Virus record (IMG/VR): IMGVR_UViG_2693429728_000005
Span: 1 to 6,964 of that record
Source of the DNA: a virus
Lineage: Duplodnaviria; Heunggongvirae; Uroviricota; Caudoviricetes
Reading direction: 5' to 3' (one strand)
DNA: 6,964 nucleotides
Part shown: positions 2 through 6,796 of the stretch, in pieces
Numbering within the stretch: position 1 is the stretch's first letter
Layout of the letters: each line of letters begins with the position of its first letter
Translations under genes and position numbers: made by a program
Notes under the pieces: generated by a model
What the model was told of the DNA's origin: nothing
The model's input: only the letters and a program-made list of their open reading frames with translations
Databases searched by the model: none

Positions 2-406
2 GTGGTGAAGGATGCTTTTTATATTCATCAGCATAAAGGGACCACCAGTGCCGTGCGGCGGGTGGTGGAGCCGTTCGGATTCCTGATCCGCATTATTGAG
101 TGGTGGCAGACCGGAGAAACACCGGGCACGTTTCGCCTGGATATCGGCGTGCAGGACCAGGGCATCACTGAAGATACCTATCTGGAACTTGAGCGACTGA
201 TAAGCGATGCCAAACCATGTAGCCGCCACATGATCGGCATGTCCATCAATCTGCAGACCAGCGGCCCGCATTGGGTGGGAGCCGCCAGCTATCTTGGCGA
301 AGAAATCACGATCTATCCGTATATCAACGAAACGATTATTTCCGGTGGCACCGCGCATGAAGGCGGGGCGGTCCATGTTATTGACACAATGAGAGTGAAT
401 CCATGA
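2..406 (+). CDS. Baseplate assembly protein, P2 gpI-like, C-terminal part (5' end lies upstream of window)
   Basis: ORF runs from window edge; stop TGA overlaps ATG of the downstream fibre gene (ATGA at 403..406), typical translational coupling; position immediately upstream of H-like fibre gene matches P2 order I-H-G-FI-FII. Identity by synteny, not by search. Confidence 0.55.
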   Translation: MVKDAFYIHQHKGTTSAVRRVVEPFGFLIRIIEWWQTGETPGTFRLDIGVQDQGITEDTYLELERLISDAKPCSRHMIGMSINLQTSGPHWVGAASYLGEEITIYPYINETIISGGTAHEGGAVHVIDTMRVNP

Positions 407-1929
407 GCACAAAATTTTATACCCTGCTGACGGATATTGGCGCGGCGAAACTTGCCAGCGCCGCCGCGCTCGGTGTGCCGCTAAAAATTACCCATATGGC
501 GGTGGGCGATGGCGGTGGAGTATTGCCAACGCCGGACGCAAAACAGACGGCACTGGTAAATGAGAAACGCCGGGCTGCGCTGAATATGCTTTATATCGAC
601 CCGCAGAACAGCAGCCAGATTATTGCCGAACAGGTGATCCCTGAAAACGAGGGCGGTTGGTGGATACGTGAAGTGGGTCTGTTTGATGAGTCCGGGGCAT
701 TGATTGCCGTGGGCAACTGCCCGGAAAGCTATAAGCCGCAACTGGCTGAAGGTAGCGGGCGCACTCAGACCGTGCGCATGGTGCTGATTACCAGCAGCAC
801 GGACAATATCACCCTGAAAATCGACCCTGCTGTAGTGCTGGCAACCCGCAAGTATGTGGATGACAAGGCACTGGAGCTGAAGGTGTACGCGGATGATCAG
901 ATGGCAAAACATCTTGCCGCACCGGACCCGCATTCACAGTACGCGCCAAAAGCCAGCCCGACATTTACCGGAACCCCCAAAGCGCCAACGCCAGCGGCGG
1001 GGAATAATACCACGCAGGTTGCGACCACTGCGTTTGTACAGGCGGCACTGACGGCCCTTATTAATGGTGCGCCAGCCACGCTGGACACGCTGAAAGAAAT
1101 AGCCGCAGCCATTAACAATGATCCGAATTTCAGTACCACCATTAACAATGCGCTGGCACTAAAAGCACCGTTGTCGAGTCCGGCACTCACCGGAACGCCA
1201 ACAGCCCCCACGGCGGCGCAGTCGGTCAACAATACACAGATTGCCACTACGGCTTTTGTGAAATCGGCGATTGCAGGAATGGTGGGTTCTGCACCTGCTG
1301 CACTGGATACACTGAACGAACTGGCGGCGGCACTGGGGAATGATCCGAACTTTGCCACGACAATGCTTAATGCGCTGGCAGGTAAACAACCGCTGGACAA
1401 TACGCTTACCAATTTGAGTGGAAAGGATGTAGCTGGTCTTCTCACATACCTTGGTTTGGGAGAAGGCTCTGCATTGCCTGTTGGTGTGCCTGTTCCGTGG
1501 CCTTCAGCCACTCCGCCAACAGGCTGGCTGAAATGCAATGGTGCGGCTTTTTCTGCTGAAGAATACCCGGAACTGGCAAAGGCTTACCCGACAAATAAAT
1601 TGCCTGATTTACGCGGTGAATTTATTCGCGGCTGGGATGACGGGCGCGGGGTTGATGTTGGGCGTGCAATCTTATCATCGCAGGGCGATGCCATCAGAAA
1701 TATAATTGGCAAGTTTGGTAATACTCAATTGTACCCAAGTATCTATTGTGATGGTGCATTTGGCGTCACTGTTGAGAATGTGTCACAAACTTTAGGATTA
1801 ACTCTTGCGCCTTCAGGGGCAGGTAATGGGACTGTAAACTTTAGCTTTGATGCATCTAAAATCGTTCCTGTTGCCACTGAAAACCGGCCGCGCAACGTCG
1901 CATTTAACTTCATTGTGAGGGCTGCATAA
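403..1929 (+). CDS. Tail fibre protein (P2 gpH / Mu S-like): constant part Sc (aa 1-354) fused to variable tip Sv(A) (aa 355-508)
   Basis: 508-aa ORF; N-terminus MSTKFYTLLTDIGAAKLA...MAVGDGGG resembles P2 H N-terminus; internal NNTQxATTAFV...LDTLxExAAAxxNDPNF repeats typical of fibre shafts; C-terminus carries a tail-collar-like motif (PWPSATPPTGWLKCNGAAFSAEEYPELAKAYP...LPDLRGEFIRGWDDGRG); crossover site lies in-frame at codons 346-354 (LTYLGLGE). Confidence 0.9.
   Translation: MSTKFYTLLTDIGAAKLASAAALGVPLKITHMAVGDGGGVLPTPDAKQTALVNEKRRAALNMLYIDPQNSSQIIAEQVIPENEGGWWIREVGLFDESGALIAVGNCPESYKPQLAEGSGRTQTVRMVLITSSTDNITLKIDPAVVLATRKYVDDKALELKVYADDQMAKHLAAPDPHSQYAPKASPTFTGTPKAPTPAAGNNTTQVATTAFVQAALTALINGAPATLDTLKEIAAAINNDPNFSTTINNALALKAPLSSPALTGTPTAPTAAQSVNNTQIATTAFVKSAIAGMVGSAPAALDTLNELAAALGNDPNFATTMLNALAGKQPLDNTLTNLSGKDVAGLLTYLGLGEGSALPVGVPVPWPSATPPTGWLKCNGAAFSAEEYPELAKAYPTNKLPDLRGEFIRGWDDGRGVDVGRAILSSQGDAIRNIIGKFGNTQLYPSIYCDGAFGVTVENVSQTLGLTLAPSGAGNGTVNFSFDASKIVPVATENRPRNVAFNFIVRAA
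1439..1464. other. Invertase crossover site cix1 (26 bp, TTCTCACATACC-TT-GGTTTGGGAGAA), inside fibre gene at Sc/Sv boundary
   Basis: Near-palindromic 12-2-12 site resembling hix/gix/cix sites (half-site like TTCTCCCAAACC); sequence identity between copies begins within it; core dinucleotide TT on top strand. Confidence 0.75.
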
Positions 1930-2271
1930 TGGCACAGGCAAAATTAAACAGCGAACTGATTGCCACGGTAGCGGGTGATGTGACCGTGTTTAACTACGAC
2001 AGCAAGACGCGGGAATATCTTTCCACATCAACTGAATATCTTGCTGTTGGCGTCGGTATCCCGGCATGTTCTTGTTTAGATGCACCAGGTATACATAAAG
2101 CTGGTTATGCAATCTGCCGTTCAGCAGATTTAAACTCATGGGAGTATGTGCCAGACCATCGCGGTGAAATCATCTATAACACCGAAACGGGAGACGCCAA
2201 AGAAATCACAACTCCGGGTGATTACCCTGAAAATACAACCACTATCGCCCCGTTAACGCCATTCGATAAAT
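1451..2271 (+). repeat. Direct repeat copy 1 (821 bp): Sv(A) tip plus first 114 codons of tfa(A); identical to 2981..3801
   Basis: Base-for-base identity read from sequence and identical ORF translations; divergence at 1450 vs 2980 and at 2272 vs 3802. Confidence 0.9.
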
Positions 2272-2273
2272 AA
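1929..2273 (+). pseudogene. Truncated tail-fibre assembly gene (first 114 codons of tfa(A), then immediate TAA created by the rearrangement junction)
   Basis: 114-aa ORF identical to residues 1-114 of the 200-aa ORF at 3459..4061; lacks the C-terminal Tfa region (LNAVLDYIDAV...); sequence after codon 114 switches to the reverse complement of the invertase-downstream region. Confidence 0.8.
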
Positions 2274-2346
2274 GCGCAGTTGTACCGTTATTCACACAAA
2301 ATGACGGTATTTGTCTGCTTGCAGGGATAATCAAAATAATGCTGAT

Positions 2347-2913
2347 TCAGGGAGATTCATTGCTCTTATTTGCCGGAAATTTTCTATAAATAGTAGAAAC
2401 GCCTACATCAAAAATCAGTGCAATACGCTGTCTTGATTCTCCGGCCTCAAGTAAACGCCCAATCTGTGCCCACTGTTCGGTGGTCAACTTAGGACGGCGT
2501 CCACCTACTCTGCCTTTGGCACGAGCTGCAGCCAGCCCTGCCCTGGTACGTTCAACTATCAGTTCGCGTTCCATTTCAGCCAGGGCACCCATAACATGAA
2601 AAAAGAAACGGCCCATTGGGGTACTGGTATCAATACTGTCAGTCAGGCTTCGGAAATTCACGCCACGCTGGCGCAACTCTTCTATCAGCGTAACAAGATG
2701 CCGCATACTGCGCCCCAGTCTGTCCAGCTTCCAGACAACCAGAGTGTCTCCTGCCGATAGTGTCCTGAGCAGTTTTTTAAGCCCCGGTCTGTCGGACTTA
2801 GTGCCACTGATTTTATCCTCAAAAATCCGCTCACATCCCGCGCAGTTCAGTGCATTACGTTGCAAATCGGTGTTCTGGTCATTTGTTGACACGCGTACAT
2901 AGCCAATAAGCAT
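2347..2913 (-). CDS. Serine DNA invertase, Gin/Pin/Cin/Hin family, copy 1 (189 aa from the MLIGYVRVS start; ORF as drawn extends to 2958)
   Basis: N-terminus MLIGYVRVSTNDQNTDLQRNAL with catalytic-serine motif, VVWKLDRLGRS, FFFHVMGALAEMERELIVERT, and C-terminal HTH region GVSTIYRKF are hallmarks of small serine invertases, very close to Mu Gin as remembered; preferred start has an AGGGGA Shine-Dalgarno 7 nt upstream. Confidence 0.9.
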   Translation of the reverse strand: MLIGYVRVSTNDQNTDLQRNALNCAGCERIFEDKISGTKSDRPGLKKLLRTLSAGDTLVVWKLDRLGRSMRHLVTLIEELRQRGVNFRSLTDSIDTSTPMGRFFFHVMGALAEMERELIVERTRAGLAAARAKGRVGGRRPKLTTEQWAQIGRLLEAGESRQRIALIFDVGVSTIYRKFPANKSNESP

Positions 2914-2940
2914 GATCAATCCCCTGAATAAAAACCGGGG

Positions 2941-3459
2941 ATGATGCCAGTTAGCCATTATCTCTGCATTTTCATAAACGTTGGTTTGGGAGAAGGCTCT
3001 GCATTGCCTGTTGGTGTGCCTGTTCCGTGGCCTTCAGCCACTCCGCCAACAGGCTGGCTGAAATGCAATGGTGCGGCTTTTTCTGCTGAAGAATACCCGG
3101 AACTGGCAAAGGCTTACCCGACAAATAAATTGCCTGATTTACGCGGTGAATTTATTCGCGGCTGGGATGACGGGCGCGGGGTTGATGTTGGGCGTGCAAT
3201 CTTATCATCGCAGGGCGATGCCATCAGAAATATAATTGGCAAGTTTGGTAATACTCAATTGTACCCAAGTATCTATTGTGATGGTGCATTTGGCGTCACT
3301 GTTGAGAATGTGTCACAAACTTTAGGATTAACTCTTGCGCCTTCAGGGGCAGGTAATGGGACTGTAAACTTTAGCTTTGATGCATCTAAAATCGTTCCTG
3401 TTGCCACTGAAAACCGGCCGCGCAACGTCGCATTTAACTTCATTGTGAGGGCTGCATAA
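2941..3459 (+). CDS. Second copy of Sv(A) fibre-tip cassette, promoterless and not fused to Sc in this arrangement (cassette proper 2995..3459; the first 18 codons of the ORF are read-through across cix2 into invertase-upstream DNA)
   Basis: Residues after GLGE are identical to aa 355-508 of the fibre gene; N-terminal [14 protein letters not shown] is the antisense of the invertase leader and also appears at the start of the Sv(B) ORF, so it is not a genuine N-terminus. Confidence 0.6.
   Translation: MMPVSHYLCIFINVGLGEGSALPVGVPVPWPSATPPTGWLKCNGAAFSAEEYPELAKAYPTNKLPDLRGEFIRGWDDGRGVDVGRAILSSQGDAIRNIIGKFGNTQLYPSIYCDGAFGVTVENVSQTLGLTLAPSGAGNGTVNFSFDASKIVPVATENRPRNVAFNFIVRAA
2969..2994. other. 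Invertase crossover site cix2 (TTTTCATAAACG-TT-GGTTTGGGAGAA), same orientation as cix1
   Basis: Exact reverse complement of cix3; the left half-site is continuous with invertase-upstream sequence, the right half with Sv(A). Confidence 0.75.
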
Positions 3460-3801
3460 TGGCACAGGCAAAATTAAACAGCGAACTGATTGCCACGGTA
3501 GCGGGTGATGTGACCGTGTTTAACTACGACAGCAAGACGCGGGAATATCTTTCCACATCAACTGAATATCTTGCTGTTGGCGTCGGTATCCCGGCATGTT
3601 CTTGTTTAGATGCACCAGGTATACATAAAGCTGGTTATGCAATCTGCCGTTCAGCAGATTTAAACTCATGGGAGTATGTGCCAGACCATCGCGGTGAAAT
3701 CATCTATAACACCGAAACGGGAGACGCCAAAGAAATCACAACTCCGGGTGATTACCCTGAAAATACAACCACTATCGCCCCGTTAACGCCATTCGATAAA
3801 T
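2981..3801 (+). repeat. Direct repeat copy 2 (821 bp), identical to 1451..2271
   Basis: See copy 1. Confidence 0.9.
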
Positions 3802-4061
3802 GGGATGGTGAGAAATGGGTGACCGATACTGAGGCACAGCATTGCGCCGCAGTAGACGCGGCAGAAGCACAGCGTCAGTCACTGATTGATACTGCAATGG
3901 CTTCCATCAGTCTGATTCAACTGAAATTGCAGGCCGGGCGGAAGCTGACGCAGGCAGAAACCACCCGACTTAACGCTGTGCTGGATTACATTGACGCGGT
4001 GACGGCAACAGATACCAGCACCGCGCCGGATGTCATCTGGCCTGAACTGCCGGAGGCGTAG
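3459..4061 (+). CDS. Tail-fibre assembly protein tfa(A) (P2 gpG / Mu U-like), full length, 200 aa
   Basis: Start ATG overlaps the Sv(A) stop (TAATG); C-terminal LNAVLDYIDAVTATDTSTAPDVIWPELP resembles conserved Tfa C-termini; position directly after the fibre tip. Confidence 0.85.
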   Translation: MAQAKLNSELIATVAGDVTVFNYDSKTREYLSTSTEYLAVGVGIPACSCLDAPGIHKAGYAICRSADLNSWEYVPDHRGEIIYNTETGDAKEITTPGDYPENTTTIAPLTPFDKWDGEKWVTDTEAQHCAAVDAAEAQRQSLIDTAMASISLIQLKLQAGRKLTQAETTRLNAVLDYIDAVTATDTSTAPDVIWPELPEA

Positions 4062-4473
4062 GCCATTCAATATCTGGCGCACCGGAAGTATCGACCAGTT
4101 CCAGTGCGTCCAGGTAATCCAGCCACAAATTATATTGCGCCAGTTCGTCACCTTTCAGACGACCAATAGCCGCTTTACCAGGCCATTGTTTACTGTTCAT
4201 ATAATCGTTGGCCTGATTAATCAATTGCTGCTTCTCCAGTTCGGCTGCAGCAATTTGTTCCTCATGTGTTGGTGGTGGAATTTCGGACCATGCAGGAAAA
4301 CCATTTTCTCCAGCGATACGGATTTTTCCTTTCGGCGGTAATCCGGAAAACTCAATATACACTTGCTCATCAACTTCAACAGCATCATCTGGCCATGAGT
4401 CAGCTTGAGTGTAATCCTCTTTCATCTCCAGCGGATAGAAAGAGTTTGTAGTCGCGGAATATATGTAATTCAT
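4033..4473 (-). CDS. Alternative tail-fibre assembly protein tfa(B) (Mu U'-like), 146 aa
   Basis: Convergent with tfa(A), with 3' ends overlapping by 29 bp (4033..4061); C-terminal NLWLDYLDALELVDTSGAPDIEWPTPP parallels the tfa(A) C-terminus; GGAG Shine-Dalgarno upstream on minus strand. Confidence 0.8.
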   Translation of the reverse strand: MNYIYSATTNSFYPLEMKEDYTQADSWPDDAVEVDEQVYIEFSGLPPKGKIRIAGENGFPAWSEIPPPTHEEQIAAAELEKQQLINQANDYMNSKQWPGKAAIGRLKGDELAQYNLWLDYLDALELVDTSGAPDIEWPTPPAVQAR

Positions 4474-4494
4474 TTTTCACTCCATATAGCTAAA

Positions 4495-4887
4495 TTAACA
4501 GCCTAACGCTAAAAATGAAGCGCCGAGGCCAGGAGTACTGGCTCTGGATATAAATTTAACCGGGTCGGGACTAAAACCTGCACAGGCAATATAACCAACA
4601 GCCCCGCTATCTGGTGTGTAGTCTTGTGAGACCAAAACACGCAGACATCTGTTTGGAAATGCAATCGGGAAATGGGTTACTACATCCTGTGCAATGCCTG
4701 GTGCGCCGATTGAGCCCCACTGAAGAATAAAACCTGATGGTAATTTTTGATATCCAGTACCTGAAACAGAAAGCGTGAAGCTACCCATATCAGGTATCTG
4801 ATTCGCCCCTGTCCCTACATTCCTTTTAGCCGCTTCTCCCAAACCAACGTTTATGAAAATGCAGAGATAATGGCTAACTGGCATCAT
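4495..4887 (-). CDS. Alternative fibre-tip cassette Sv(B), silent in this orientation (cassette proper 4495..4833, 112 aa after GLGE; the ORF as drawn reads through cix3)
   Basis: Minus-strand reading through cix3 gives ...NVGLGE then [19 protein letters not shown]...ALGC, in the same frame as Sc across the crossover site; inversion would produce a 466-aa Sc+Sv(B) fibre; sits directly upstream (minus sense) of tfa(B). Confidence 0.75.
4834..4859. other. Invertase crossover site cix3 (TTCTCCCAAACC-AA-CGTTTATGAAAA), inverted relative to cix1 and cix2
   Basis: 12-2-12 site; close to the hix half-site as remembered (TTATCAAAAACC); core AA on top strand versus TT at cix1/cix2. Confidence 0.8.
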
Positions 4888-4914
4888 CCCCGGTTTTTAT
4901 TCAGGGGATTGATC

Positions 4915-5481
4915 ATGCTTATTGGCTATGTACGCGTGTCAACAAATGACCAGAACACCGATTTGCAACGTAATGCACTGAACTGCGCGGGATGTGAGCG
5001 GATTTTTGAGGATAAAATCAGTGGCACTAAGTCCGACAGACCGGGGCTTAAAAAACTGCTCAGGACACTATCGGCAGGAGACACTCTGGTTGTCTGGAAG
5101 CTGGACAGACTGGGGCGCAGTATGCGGCATCTTGTTACGCTGATAGAAGAGTTGCGCCAGCGTGGCGTGAATTTCCGAAGCCTGACTGACAGTATTGATA
5201 CCAGTACCCCAATGGGCCGTTTCTTTTTTCATGTTATGGGTGCCCTGGCTGAAATGGAACGCGAACTGATAGTTGAACGTACCAGGGCAGGGCTGGCTGC
5301 AGCTCGTGCCAAAGGCAGAGTAGGTGGACGCCGTCCTAAGTTGACCACCGAACAGTGGGCACAGATTGGGCGTTTACTTGAGGCCGGAGAATCAAGACAG
5401 CGTATTGCACTGATTTTTGATGTAGGCGTTTCTACTATTTATAGAAAATTTCCGGCAAATAAGAGCAATGAATCTCCCTGA
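4915..5481 (+). CDS. Serine DNA invertase, Gin/Pin/Cin/Hin family, copy 2 (ORF as drawn starts at 4870)
   Basis: Identical protein to copy 1; AGGGGA Shine-Dalgarno before ATG 4915; a GATAAT -10-like hexamer at 4866..4871 abuts cix3, consistent with a promoter overlapping the crossover site. Confidence 0.9.
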   Translation: MLIGYVRVSTNDQNTDLQRNALNCAGCERIFEDKISGTKSDRPGLKKLLRTLSAGDTLVVWKLDRLGRSMRHLVTLIEELRQRGVNFRSLTDSIDTSTPMGRFFFHVMGALAEMERELIVERTRAGLAAARAKGRVGGRRPKLTTEQWAQIGRLLEAGESRQRIALIFDVGVSTIYRKFPANKSNESP

Positions 5482-5529
5482 ATCAGCATTATTTTGATTA
5501 TCCCTGCAAGCAGACAAATACCGTCATTT

Positions 5530-5547
5530 TGTGTGAATAACGGTACA
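5530..5547 (+). promoter_or_regulatory. TGT-N12-ACA dyad, candidate P2-type late-promoter activator (Ogr/Delta family) site upstream of the sheath gene
   Basis: TGTgtgaataacggtACA lies about 75-95 nt upstream of the sheath ATG (5624), appropriate for an element centred near -55; P2 late promoters carry this dyad. The same dyad is mirrored at 2281..2298 inside the left repeat arm. Confidence 0.4.
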
Positions 5548-5623
5548 ACTGCGCTTAGCTGTTTGTCAGGCACAATCACTTCAACATAGGGCGAAGCCTA
5601 ATCCAATCAGGAGGTTCGCCACT

Positions 5624-6796
5624 ATGGCTCAGGATTACCACCACGGGGTGCGCGTTGTTGAAGTCAACGAAGGCACCCGATCCATTACCACGGTGAGCAC
5701 CGCCATCGTGGGTATGATCTGCACGGGCGATGATGCCGATGCAAAAATGTTTCCTCTTAATAAACCCGTGCTGATCACTGATGTGCTGACTGCCAGCGGT
5801 AAAGCGGGTGAGTCCGGTACTCTGGCCCGTTCGCTGGATGCCATCGCTGACCAGGCAAAACCCGTGACCGTTGTTGTGCGTGTGCCGCAGGGTGAAACGG
5901 AAGACGAAACCACGACCAATATCATCGGCGCTGTGACTGCTGAAGGTAAAAAAACAGGCATGAAAGCCCTGCTATCTGCCCAGTCACAGCTCGGCGTTAA
6001 ACCGCGCATTCTCGGCGTGCCAGGTCACGATAACAAAGCCGTTGCGACTGAGTTGCTGAGCGTGGCGCAAAGCCTGCGTGGGTTTGCTTACCTGTCAGCG
6101 TATGGCTGCAAGACGGTACAGGAGGCGATCACTTACCGTGAAAACTTCAGCCAGCGCGAAGGAATGCTGATCTGGCCCGACTTTACTGGCTGGGATACGG
6201 TGTTGAATGCCGAAGCAACGGCATATGCCACCGCCCGTGCGCTTGGTCTGCGCGCCAAAATTGATGAGCAGACCGGGTGGCACAAAAGCCTGTCCAACGT
6301 GGGCGTGAACGGTGTCACCGGAATTTCTGCAGATGTGTTCTGGGATCTGCAGGACCCGGCAACCGATGCGGGACTGCTTAACCAGAACGACGTCACCACG
6401 CTTATCCGCAAAGACGGTTTCCGCTTCTGGGGTTCCCGCTGCCTGAGTGATGACCCGCTCTTTGCCTTCGAAAACTACACCCGCACGGCGCAGGTACTGA
6501 TGGACACGATGGCAGAAGCGCATATGTGGGCGGTGGACAAACCGCTGAACCCGTCGCTGGCCCGCGACATTATCGAAGGTATCCGCGCCAAAATGCGCAG
6601 CCTGGTCAGTCAGGGGTATCTCATTGGTGGTGATTGCTGGCTGGACGAGTCGGTGAACGACAAAGACACGCTGAAAGCCGGAAAACTCACCATCGACTAT
6701 GACTACACGCCAGTGCCGCCACTTGAAAATCTGATGCTGCGTCAGCGCATCACCGATCAGTACCTGGTGAATTTTGCCAGCCAGGTCAGCGCGTAA
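5624..6796 (+). CDS. Tail sheath protein (P2 gpFI-like), 390 aa
   Basis: Strong AGGAGG Shine-Dalgarno 8 nt upstream; N-terminus [31 protein letters not shown] matches the contractile-tail sheath N-terminus of P2-like phages as remembered; followed by tail tube gene. Confidence 0.9.

Follow-up and report, generated by a model that had tools for sequence, protein, structure and literature searches.

The best explanation of the real locus in the 6,964-nt stretch of viral DNA analysed here (the window) is a canonical tail-fibre inversion switch of a P2-like (Peduoviridae) prophage, which would have two crossover sites and one invertase gene, and the extra 1,530 bp at 1465-2994 are probably an assembly or scaffolding artefact. 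Such a canonical locus would comprise a constant fibre part, an invertible segment of 1.84 kb in which two cassettes mirror each other, each encoding a fibre C-terminus and the assembly protein that belongs to it, and, just outside the segment, a Gin-like serine invertase and the enhancer. Read literally, the window would imply that self-resolving switches with two invertases form a new class; the evidence instead favours a switch of known type carrying a private duplication, most likely an assembly artefact. The case also cautions that mixed-orientation cultures of invertible phage regions may yield second copies of invertase genes, truncated forms of tfa and additional crossover sites, artefactual features that may pass for biology and then spread into annotation.

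Crossover sites, repeats and genes of the window

A scan with the crossover-site consensus TTCTCNNAAACCNNGGTTTNNGAGAA revealed exactly three matches in the window at up to three mismatches, two of them with a TT core on the plus strand (1439-1464 and 2969-2994) and one with an AA core (4834-4859), each lying only one or two mismatches from the consensus (Table 1). No match was obtained in shuffled sequence (200 shuffles), and the best non-site position in the window agreed with the consensus at 13 of 20 positions. The sites show the features of their class, being 26-bp imperfect palindromes with a non-palindromic 2-bp core that are inverted around the segment, and canonical relatives have exactly two of them, in inverted orientation. 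The left site of the Escherichia coli SL124 prophage is identical to site 1, and the junction type at site 2 (invertase side plus Sv(A)) occurs in the canonical locus in the other orientation only. Two perfect repeats are associated with these sites, namely a direct repeat of 821 nt (1451-2271 versus 2981-3801, 100% identity) and an inverted repeat of 725 nt, whose arms at 2271-2995 and 4833-5557 are perfect reverse complements (100%). The first-pass annotation, which had described the sites at 1439 and 2969 as direct and that at 4834 as inverted, together with two identical and opposed invertase genes, was borne out on both counts, with the genes located at 2347-2913 on the minus strand and 4915-5481 on the plus strand.

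Regarding the tail genes, the counterpart of the gpI-type gene in SL124 is annotated as 'phage tail protein I', and the fibre gene encodes a Phage_tail_fib N-terminal domain (E 6e-65) and a Collar domain and is, at 1,527 nt, exactly as long as the fibre CDS of SL124. The 508-aa ORF at 403-1929 agrees with the earlier proposal that the fibre now expressed is Sc+Sv(A), read through the first site. The tfa(A) copy next to this gene is cut to 114 aa by junction 2270|2271, a truncation on which the annotation had been silent; the truncated protein had no Pfam match, whereas the full 200-aa copy matched Caudo_TAP, and an exact look-up of the truncated form in the gene catalogue returned no record.

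The invertase aligned to the Mu Gin structures 3UJ3 and 4M6F across residues 1-184 (E 8e-93), with far weaker matches to resolvases (E 2e-34 or weaker). Its motif GYVRVSTNDQ aligned with Gin, the serine corresponding to S9 of 4M6F and to the S9A substitution in 3UJ3. Size, domains and catalytic serine all fit the Din (Gin/Hin/Cin/Pin) subclass of small serine recombinases, to which the protein is assigned from its sequence. In addition, two Fis-consensus matches at the 5' end of the gene have centres 48 bp apart, the nearer one ~98 bp from the centre of site 3, a placement that agrees with the geometry of Hin, where the native hix-enhancer spacing is roughly 100 bp and the enhancer 65 bp (PMC3798978). 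For this candidate enhancer, however, such matches are common, the window containing 173 of them at up to one mismatch.

Table 1. Features of the window, in order of position
Feature	Position	Strand	Remarks
P2 gpI-type baseplate/tail protein gene, 3' part	2..406	+	Pfam Tail_P2_I, E 6e-24
Expressed tail fibre gene, 508 aa	403..1929	+	Constant part to site 1, then Sv(A) copy 1
Crossover site 1	1439..1464	+	TTCTCACATACC TT GGTTTGGGAGAA; constant-part half and Sv(A) half; 1 mismatch to Din consensus
Direct repeat, copy 1	1451..2271	+	Sv(A) and first 114 codons of tfa(A); equals 2981-3801
tfa(A), truncated tail-fibre-assembly gene, 114 aa	1929..2273	+	From ORF list; stop codon made by the junction
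Illegitimate junction	2270..2271	.	Segment base 806 joined to reverse complement of position 5557
Inverted-repeat arm	2271..2995	-	Duplicates the crossover site, the invertase gene and the 76 nt that follow the gene
Invertase gene, extra copy, 188 aa	2347..2913	-	Identical to 4915-5481
Candidate enhancer, mirror copy	2829..2891	-	Mirror of 4937-4999 inside the exact inverted repeat; putative
Crossover site 2	2969..2994	+	TTTTCATAAACG TT GGTTTGGGAGAA; invertase-side half and Sv(A) half
Invertible segment	2995..4833	.	Gene order as in SL124 and in phage 500465-1
Silent Sv(A), copy 2	2995-3459	+	Inside the invertible segment
Full tfa(A)	3459-4061	+	Pfam Caudo_TAP
tfa(B)	4033-4473	-	Pfam Caudo_TAP
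Silent Sv(B)	4495-4833	-	Pfam Gp53-like_C
Crossover site 3	4834..4859	+	TTCTCCCAAACC AA CGTTTATGAAAA; exact reverse complement of site 2
Invertase gene, canonical position, 188 aa, Gin/Cin/Pin type	4915..5481	+	Resolvase E 2e-53; HTH_7 E 1e-15
Candidate recombinational enhancer	4937..4999	+	Fis-consensus matches 4937-4951 and 4985-4999; putative function
Tail sheath gene, P2 FI type	5624..6796	+	Pfam Phage_sheath_1, Phage_sheath_1C, Gp18_domIII_N

Canonical relatives, the illegitimate junction and its look-alikes

Deletion of 1465-2994 yields a canonical 5,434-bp locus that is collinear with the SL124 prophage, with 5 mismatches and no indel, and has the same arrangement as phage 500465-1. The window itself was rebuilt base for base from the canonical locus in the other orientation by a 1,530-base tandem duplication and one inversion between the outer sites; its junctions are those of both orientation states, and nothing else in it is new besides the illegitimate join. 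Among complete E. coli genomes, the junction of the constant part with Sv(A) was found in 534 and that of the invertase with Sv(A) (at least 80% coverage) in 966, including UTME-13 at 100%, which is collinear with the computed other orientation of the window. Both switch orientations are thus found among public genomes of P2-like E. coli prophages, and the two junction types show that the segment inverts in this family of loci. The co-occurrence of both-orientation junctions in the window suggests that the switch was flipping in the sequenced strain, and this holds whether the duplication is an artefact or real.

The junction at 2270|2271, the sole illegitimate one in the window, has a microhomology of 1 nt (T) and contains neither N nor another gap symbol. 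It was present in none of the 5,426 complete E. coli genomes searched by BLAST and had no exact 31-mer match in IMG/VR, the GTDB representatives or JGI metagenomes, and a BLAST search of phages and plasmids gave no match spanning it. A functional landmark at the breakpoint 5557 was considered and rejected, as no terminator-like or promoter-like match was present there.

Complete E. coli genomes were also queried with a construct of arm, 2-kb random spacer and arm, designed for inverted invertase pairs up to ~2.2 kb apart. No identical inverted pair was detected in the 5,426 genomes with this query; only two genomes gave a pair, each a hybrid join of different invertases from two different elements. 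Among 162 related loci, one (L099) had the exact topology of the window, with a 912-nt inverted repeat, a 799-nt direct repeat and three sites, and two others (L102 and L153) had related perfect-repeat structures. All three are independent IMG/VR scaffolds in which every illegitimate junction coincides exactly with a single N, the mark of a scaffolding join. The overhang sizes are alike in the window (821 and 725), L099 (799 and 912) and L102 (782 and 615), and the repeats of L153 are much longer (1,330-2,833 nt). Moreover, many draft contigs stop at the crossover site, 64-131 nt before the invertase gene begins, indicating that assemblers routinely break there. In the data of Forde et al. (2014), ~50% of PacBio reads had the alternative orientation and gave rise to spurious alternative-allele contigs, and a warning about artefactual duplications from such contigs at invertible phage regions has been published (PMC4134206).

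Under an assembly origin, the sequenced culture would hold both switch orientations, and a contig or read path of the other orientation, running on the reverse strand through the downstream spacer, invertase, site and Sv(A), would be joined end-to-end to a contig stopping 806 nt inside the segment. Such a join would produce junction 2270|2271 together with the perfect 821-nt direct repeat and the perfect 725-nt inverted repeat. The extra sequence consists of base-perfect copies of neighbouring DNA with junctions of both orientations, as an artefact of this kind predicts, and the N-free junction of the window may have arisen in the same manner as the N-marked scaffold joins. Certain observations run against an artefact: the junction bears no gap mark, so that an assembler or gap closer must have made a clean join; the structure can also be explained by two plausible biological steps, namely a tandem duplication and then an ordinary flip; and the breakpoints lie within 1.8 kb of each other, as in a real local duplication.

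Alternative origins of the extra copy

Should the extra copy be real DNA, it would stem from a very recent 1,530-base tandem duplication by illegitimate recombination in the B-on orientation, extending from segment base 806 through the site and invertase gene to 76 nt downstream, and from one subsequent inversion between the outer sites, a history that appears somewhat unlikely. The locus would then flip among four states with two fibres, and RecA acting between the long perfect repeats would collapse it to the canonical form. This two-step route gives the window exactly and is compatible with a junction without N; in addition, the B-on precursor state is common (966 genomes; UTME-13), and the intact sites and invertase copies make the needed inversion feasible. 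However, it requires that DNA ends sharing only 1 nt of microhomology were joined illegitimately, which is a rare event in E. coli, and that the product was then fixed in the sequenced clone. Furthermore, no second gap-free example was found in ~2,470 complete E. coli genomes with such invertase loci or among the 162 related loci, all look-alikes are scaffold joins, and a perfect 821-nt direct repeat should disappear quickly. A real tandem duplication in an active Din switch after one flip, in which the locus would have four states, two enhancers and two invertase genes that both function, is regarded as unlikely; if real, such duplications could provide the raw material for multi-site switches, such as the EPEC three-repeat locus and p15B Min, once the duplicated cassette diverges or is replaced.

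The first-pass annotation favoured a multi-state or self-resolving variant of the flip switch, which would amount to an evolved three-site, two-invertase system kept by selection. This reading draws on three good sites, two intact invertase genes with candidate enhancers, and the natural occurrence of three-repeat, four-variant switches in P2-like prophages (PMC4272514). The proposed inversions between sites 2 and 3 and between sites 1 and 3 were formally possible in simulation, in which inversions of 1,865 and 3,395 bp (between site starts) linked four states. These four states encode only two fibres, of 508 aa and 466 aa, as does the canonical switch, and the most accessible flip, that of site 2 with site 3, is phenotypically silent; there is no third cassette, and what adjoins the third site is a copy of Sv(A) with 100% identity. 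The additional distinct cassettes and more than two products of a multi-site switch are therefore lacking, the copies show zero divergence, the tfa gene adjoining the expressed fibre is truncated, and the arrangement is conserved in no other genome searched, the junction being absent from every collection searched for it. The predicted deletion between sites 1 and 2 by the invertase is not expected, as in wild-type DNA invertases the Fis/enhancer invertasome imposes a synapsis that depends on site orientation and serves inversion (PMC3798978). With Hin-H107Y, a mutant independent of Fis, inversion and deletion are reported to occur at nearly equal rates when the substrates are linear (PMC4817059). 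Were the extra copy real DNA, it would be removed by RecA acting over the 821-nt direct repeat and not by the invertase. An evolved three-site switch is very unlikely and already largely refuted. The anatomy drawn in the annotation and its proposed refutation by an assembly chimera were thus sound, whereas the self-resolving, shufflon-like reading is unsupported in view of the private junction, the lack of new sequence and the N-marked look-alikes elsewhere.

It is extremely unlikely that the invertase itself made the junction on quasi-sites at 3789-3814 and 5546-5571. The former agrees with the consensus at 11 of 20 positions (top 0.25% of positions), its right half GGATGGTGAGAA matches at 8 of 10, its core begins exactly at the breakpoint, and the use of quasi-sites by Cin is documented (Iida & Hiestand-Nauer 1987, as cited in PMC4134206). 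Its partner, however, has an ordinary score (6 of 20), the cores differ (TG versus GC), and the duplication would require an intermolecular reaction, which the invertasome disfavours. To our knowledge, the documented events pair a quasi-site with a genuine site, which also speaks against this route. Other rearrangements were considered and rejected. A simple inversion between 3801 and 5557 should create one more novel junction and put the wrong cassette behind site 2, and the window did not match. In a Roth-type tandem-inversion duplication with two deletions, one deletion must end exactly at the crossover core, which is less parsimonious than duplication and flip. Snap-back priming at the palindromic crossover site predicts two identical half-sites, but site 2 is of the ordinary recombinant type.

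Comparison with known inversion systems

The locus resembles the Mu Gin/G segment, P1 Cin/C segment and e14 Pin/P segment in its 26-bp imperfect palindromic sites with a 2-bp core, a candidate enhancer in the 5' end of an invertase gene just outside the segment, and mirror-image cassettes that each consist of a fibre C-terminus and its Tfa. Unlike Mu and P1, the phage of the window is P2-like (Peduoviridae), with Wadgaonvirus 500465-1 as the closest named phage, and a third site and second invertase copy, attributed here to a duplication artefact, set the window apart from all three switches. The p15B Min system has six sites and one min gene. It shuffles several distinct cassettes with this one invertase and is conserved as such, whereas the window has no extra cassette. 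Both are Din-family systems with crossover sites of the same consensus, the p15B sites sharing a consensus table with Mu, P1, e14 and S. boydii (PMC4134206).

In the P2-like prophage of EPEC E2348/69, three homologous sites support overlapping inversions of ~2.2 and 1.8 kb and four interconvertible variants (Goldberg et al. 2014, PMC4272514). The window likewise has three sites, two overlapping inversions and four variants, but the EPEC locus has three different C-termini, whereas the third site of the window borders a duplicate cassette and the four states give two fibres. Canonical P2-like switches are present in SL124, UTME-13, phage 500465-1 and the EC958 Phi prophages, none of which has the 1,530-bp duplication or junction 2270|2271; the EC958 prophages have the same 26-bp sites, with mixed orientations in one culture (PMC4134206). 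Although the join in the window differs from those of the N-marked look-alikes in having no gap symbol, the extra copy shares with alternative-allele-contig artefacts a base-perfect match, locus sequence only, junctions of both orientations and one arbitrary join.

Gene layout, crossover sites and repeats

The window represents a tail module from a P2-like (Peduoviridae) prophage, for which Escherichia phage 500465-1 (Wadgaonvirus), canonical in gene order, was the nearest named phage. Scanning with the Din crossover consensus revealed three 26-bp matches with 1-2 mismatches each; the control of 200 shuffles yielded 0 matches, and the next best window position scored 13/20. Sites 2 and 3 are exact reverse complements of each other; site 2 is composed of an invertase-side half-site and a half-site of Sv(A), one of the two alternative variable fibre parts, Sv(A) and Sv(B), whose tail-fibre-assembly genes are tfa(A) and tfa(B). 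In addition, the two invertase genes are identical and opposed because they lie in the arms of an exact inverted repeat. The consensus scan, the cores and the repeats thus confirm what the first-pass annotation had described, namely two direct sites with a third inverted to them and two identical, oppositely oriented invertase genes.

Features of the window and their coordinates
Feature	Position	Remarks
gpI	2-406	
Tail fibre gene	403-1929	
Site 1	1439	direct to site 2; core TT
Direct repeat, exact, 821 nt	1451-2271 = 2981-3801	
Truncated tail-fibre-assembly gene	1929-2273	114 aa
Inverted repeat, exact, 725 nt	2271-2995	reverse complement of 4833-5557
Invertase gene	2347-2913	minus strand
Silent cassette	2941-3459	plus strand
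Site 2	2969	direct to site 1; core TT
1.84-kb segment	2995-4833	silent Sv(A) fragment, full tfa(A), tfa(B), silent Sv(B)
Silent cassette	4495-4887	minus strand
Site 3	4834	inverted
Second invertase gene	4915-5481	
Tail sheath gene	5624-6796	

The silent cassettes read as ORFs with the start ATG inside the invertase leader, and such fragments are annotated as the proteins 'gp53-like domain-containing protein' and 'phage tail protein' in SL124 and UTME-13, two E. coli strains with related prophages. Similarly, the invertase ORF from 4870 encodes 203 aa and is longer than the 188-aa protein, whose first residue is already aligned with Gin. Moreover, the constant part of the fibre carries the motif LDTL(K/N)E(I/L)AAA(I/L)(N/G)NDPNF twice (~1075-1135 and ~1297-1356, ~75 codons between), resembling a repeat within the fibre shaft.

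Derivation of the extra 1,530 bp

Without 1465-2994, the window is reduced to a canonical locus of 5,434 bp, as the earlier proposal had it, that is collinear with the SL124 prophage (5 mismatches, no indel). The differences from SL124 are confined to window positions 3349, 3764, 3793, 3929 and 6196. Four of them fall close together, in a 600-nt part of the invertible segment (Sv(A) end, tfa(A)), and where the duplicated part is concerned, its two copies in the window share the same alleles.

The invertase|Sv(A) half-site junction of site 2 is shown by a canonical locus solely in the other orientation of the switch (B-on), and this type of junction is common in nature, being found in 966 complete E. 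coli genomes versus 534 for the constant-part|Sv(A) junction. Of the four canonical junction types, constant-part|Sv(B) does not occur in the window. UTME-13 is collinear with the computed B-on form of the window locus over all 5,434 bp. In the B-on state, the reverse complement of the 1,530 bases at 2271-3800 forms one uninterrupted stretch, made up of the segment's first 806 nt, followed by the site, the invertase gene and the 76 nt that lie downstream. When the canonical locus was turned to B-on, this stretch duplicated in tandem and the part between the outermost sites inverted, the rebuilt sequence was identical to the window at every base; therefore, the whole anomaly comes down to one illegitimate junction, 2270|2271, with a microhomology of 1 nt, and everything else in the locus is ordinary switch behaviour. 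A weak quasi-crossover site at 3789-3814 (CCATTCGATAAATGGGATGGTGAGAA; 11/20, right half 8/10) has its core start exactly at the duplication breakpoint 3800|3801, probably by coincidence, because its partner at 5546 scores only 6/20.

Of 5,426 complete E. coli genomes, none had a match spanning the illegitimate junction, although 1,914 matched one of its halves; phages and plasmids gave no spanning match either. Exact matches were absent from IMG/VR, the GTDB species representatives and the JGI metagenomes, and the truncated 114-aa Tfa protein is not on record. By these sequence comparisons, the junction is private to the window. Three small 'plasmids' (15-37 kb) of one pig E. coli in PLSDB (NZ_CP019274.1, NZ_CP019275.1 and NZ_CP019279.1) match the P2-like tail region; CP019275.1 is also present in the phage collection, and the three may in fact represent phage genomes, or contigs of alternative alleles, that were submitted as plasmids.

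Related loci and the cause of the duplication

An inverted-pair query of two arms with 2 kb of random sequence between them, reaching invertase pairs up to ~2.2 kb apart, matched just two complete E. coli genomes, FDAARGOS_1287 and bR_120_Kylling. Both were rejected as instances of the same phenomenon, as each has two different invertases from two different elements on either side of a segment without the constant fibre part. In bR_120_Kylling both of the opposed partners are P2-like tail modules, and in FDAARGOS_1287 a pinE remnant beside ssrA faces a P2-like module. In these two genomes (L163, NZ_CP182374.1, 5077-8204, and L164, NZ_CP070071.1, 4895-8076) and in the IMG/VR contig L090 (4444-7567), different invertase genes (83-93% identity) lie head-to-head around one invertible segment, with the constant fibre part on neither side. 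Such hybrids resemble the outcome of recombination, or of mis-joining, between switches belonging to different elements, perhaps a chromosomal inversion.

Among 162 related loci surveyed, five had more than one invertase gene: L090 and L007, both hybrids of the different-invertase kind, and L099, L102 and L153, which are IMG/VR prophage scaffolds from isolate genomes. L099 has exactly the topology of the window, with three sites in the same relative orientations and an inverted repeat of 912 nt and a direct repeat of 799 nt abutting a single junction, and L102 and L153 have related perfect-repeat structures. All three carry a single N exactly at every illegitimate junction (L099, 7831; L102, 2494 and 4146; L153, 3875) and are thus mis-scaffolded redundant contigs at an invertible switch; the junctions are scaffold joins, and the contig ends carry redundant sequence of both orientation states. 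In L102, the sheath gene start is joined straight to the fibre-side crossover site. The overhangs are similar in length in the window (821 and 725), L099 (799 and 912) and L102 (782 and 615), and the repeats of L153 are far longer (1,330-2,833 nt).

Many draft contigs (e.g., L010, L011, L018, L024, L032, L035) end at the crossover site, 64-131 nt ahead of the start codon of the invertase gene, indicating that short-read assemblies routinely break at the switch, presumably because both orientations are present in the culture. In EC958, Forde et al. (PMC4134206) found the alternative orientation in about half of the PacBio reads that covered regions of this kind, giving rise to spurious alternative-allele contigs; both observations fit the picture of scaffold joins. 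The extra piece is probably an artefact that arose in the assembly of a mixed-orientation culture. Counting against an artefact, the window junction has no N, unlike those of L099, L102 and L153, which favours real DNA in the form of a very recent, private and unstable duplication, although this is rather unlikely overall. The artefact is taken as the most likely cause, and otherwise a private, unstable duplication.

Expected behaviour if the arrangement is real DNA, and known switches

The invertase and Mu Gin can be aligned over residues 1-184 (E 8e-93), and the YVRVST catalytic motif is present in the invertase. Two Fis-consensus matches 48 bp apart at the invertase 5' end, ~98 bp from site 3, form a candidate enhancer with the spacing described for the Hin enhancer (PMC3798978), and this sequence recurs in the inverted copy at 2829-2891. 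When every inversion between sites of opposite orientation was simulated, four states resulted: the window itself (W0), with an Sv(A) fibre, as the first-pass annotation had read it, followed by truncated tfa(A); W1 (site 1 x site 3), with a 466-aa Sv(B) fibre and the two invertase genes direct in a 1,531-bp tandem repeat; W2 (site 2 x site 3), phenotypically silent; and W3, with an Sv(A) fibre followed by full tfa(A). As these states make just the two usual fibres, the duplication adds no coding capacity. Both predicted inversions are formally reachable; the invertase itself would not be expected to carry out the predicted site 1 x site 2 deletion, because the Fis/enhancer invertasome imposes orientation-specific synapsis for inversion (PMC3798978). 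For Hin-H107Y, a mutant that works independently of Fis, inversion and deletion on linear substrates were reported at nearly equal rates (PMC4817059). Loss of the extra copy would instead go through homologous recombination between the perfect direct repeats of 821 nt or 1,531 nt.

In summary, the private junction, the base-perfect duplicate, the two usual fibres and the N-marked look-alikes do not support the proposed new multi-state or self-resolving, shufflon-like switch. Apart from the extra piece, the locus is an ordinary Gin/Cin/Pin-family switch of the kind that many P2-like E. coli prophages carry. Min of p15B is a multi-site Din system, and three-site switching is already documented for a P2-like prophage of EPEC E2348/69 (three repeats, four variants, three C-termini; PMC4272514). 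Those two systems have distinct cassettes, whereas the third site of the window borders only a duplicate and adds no new cassette.
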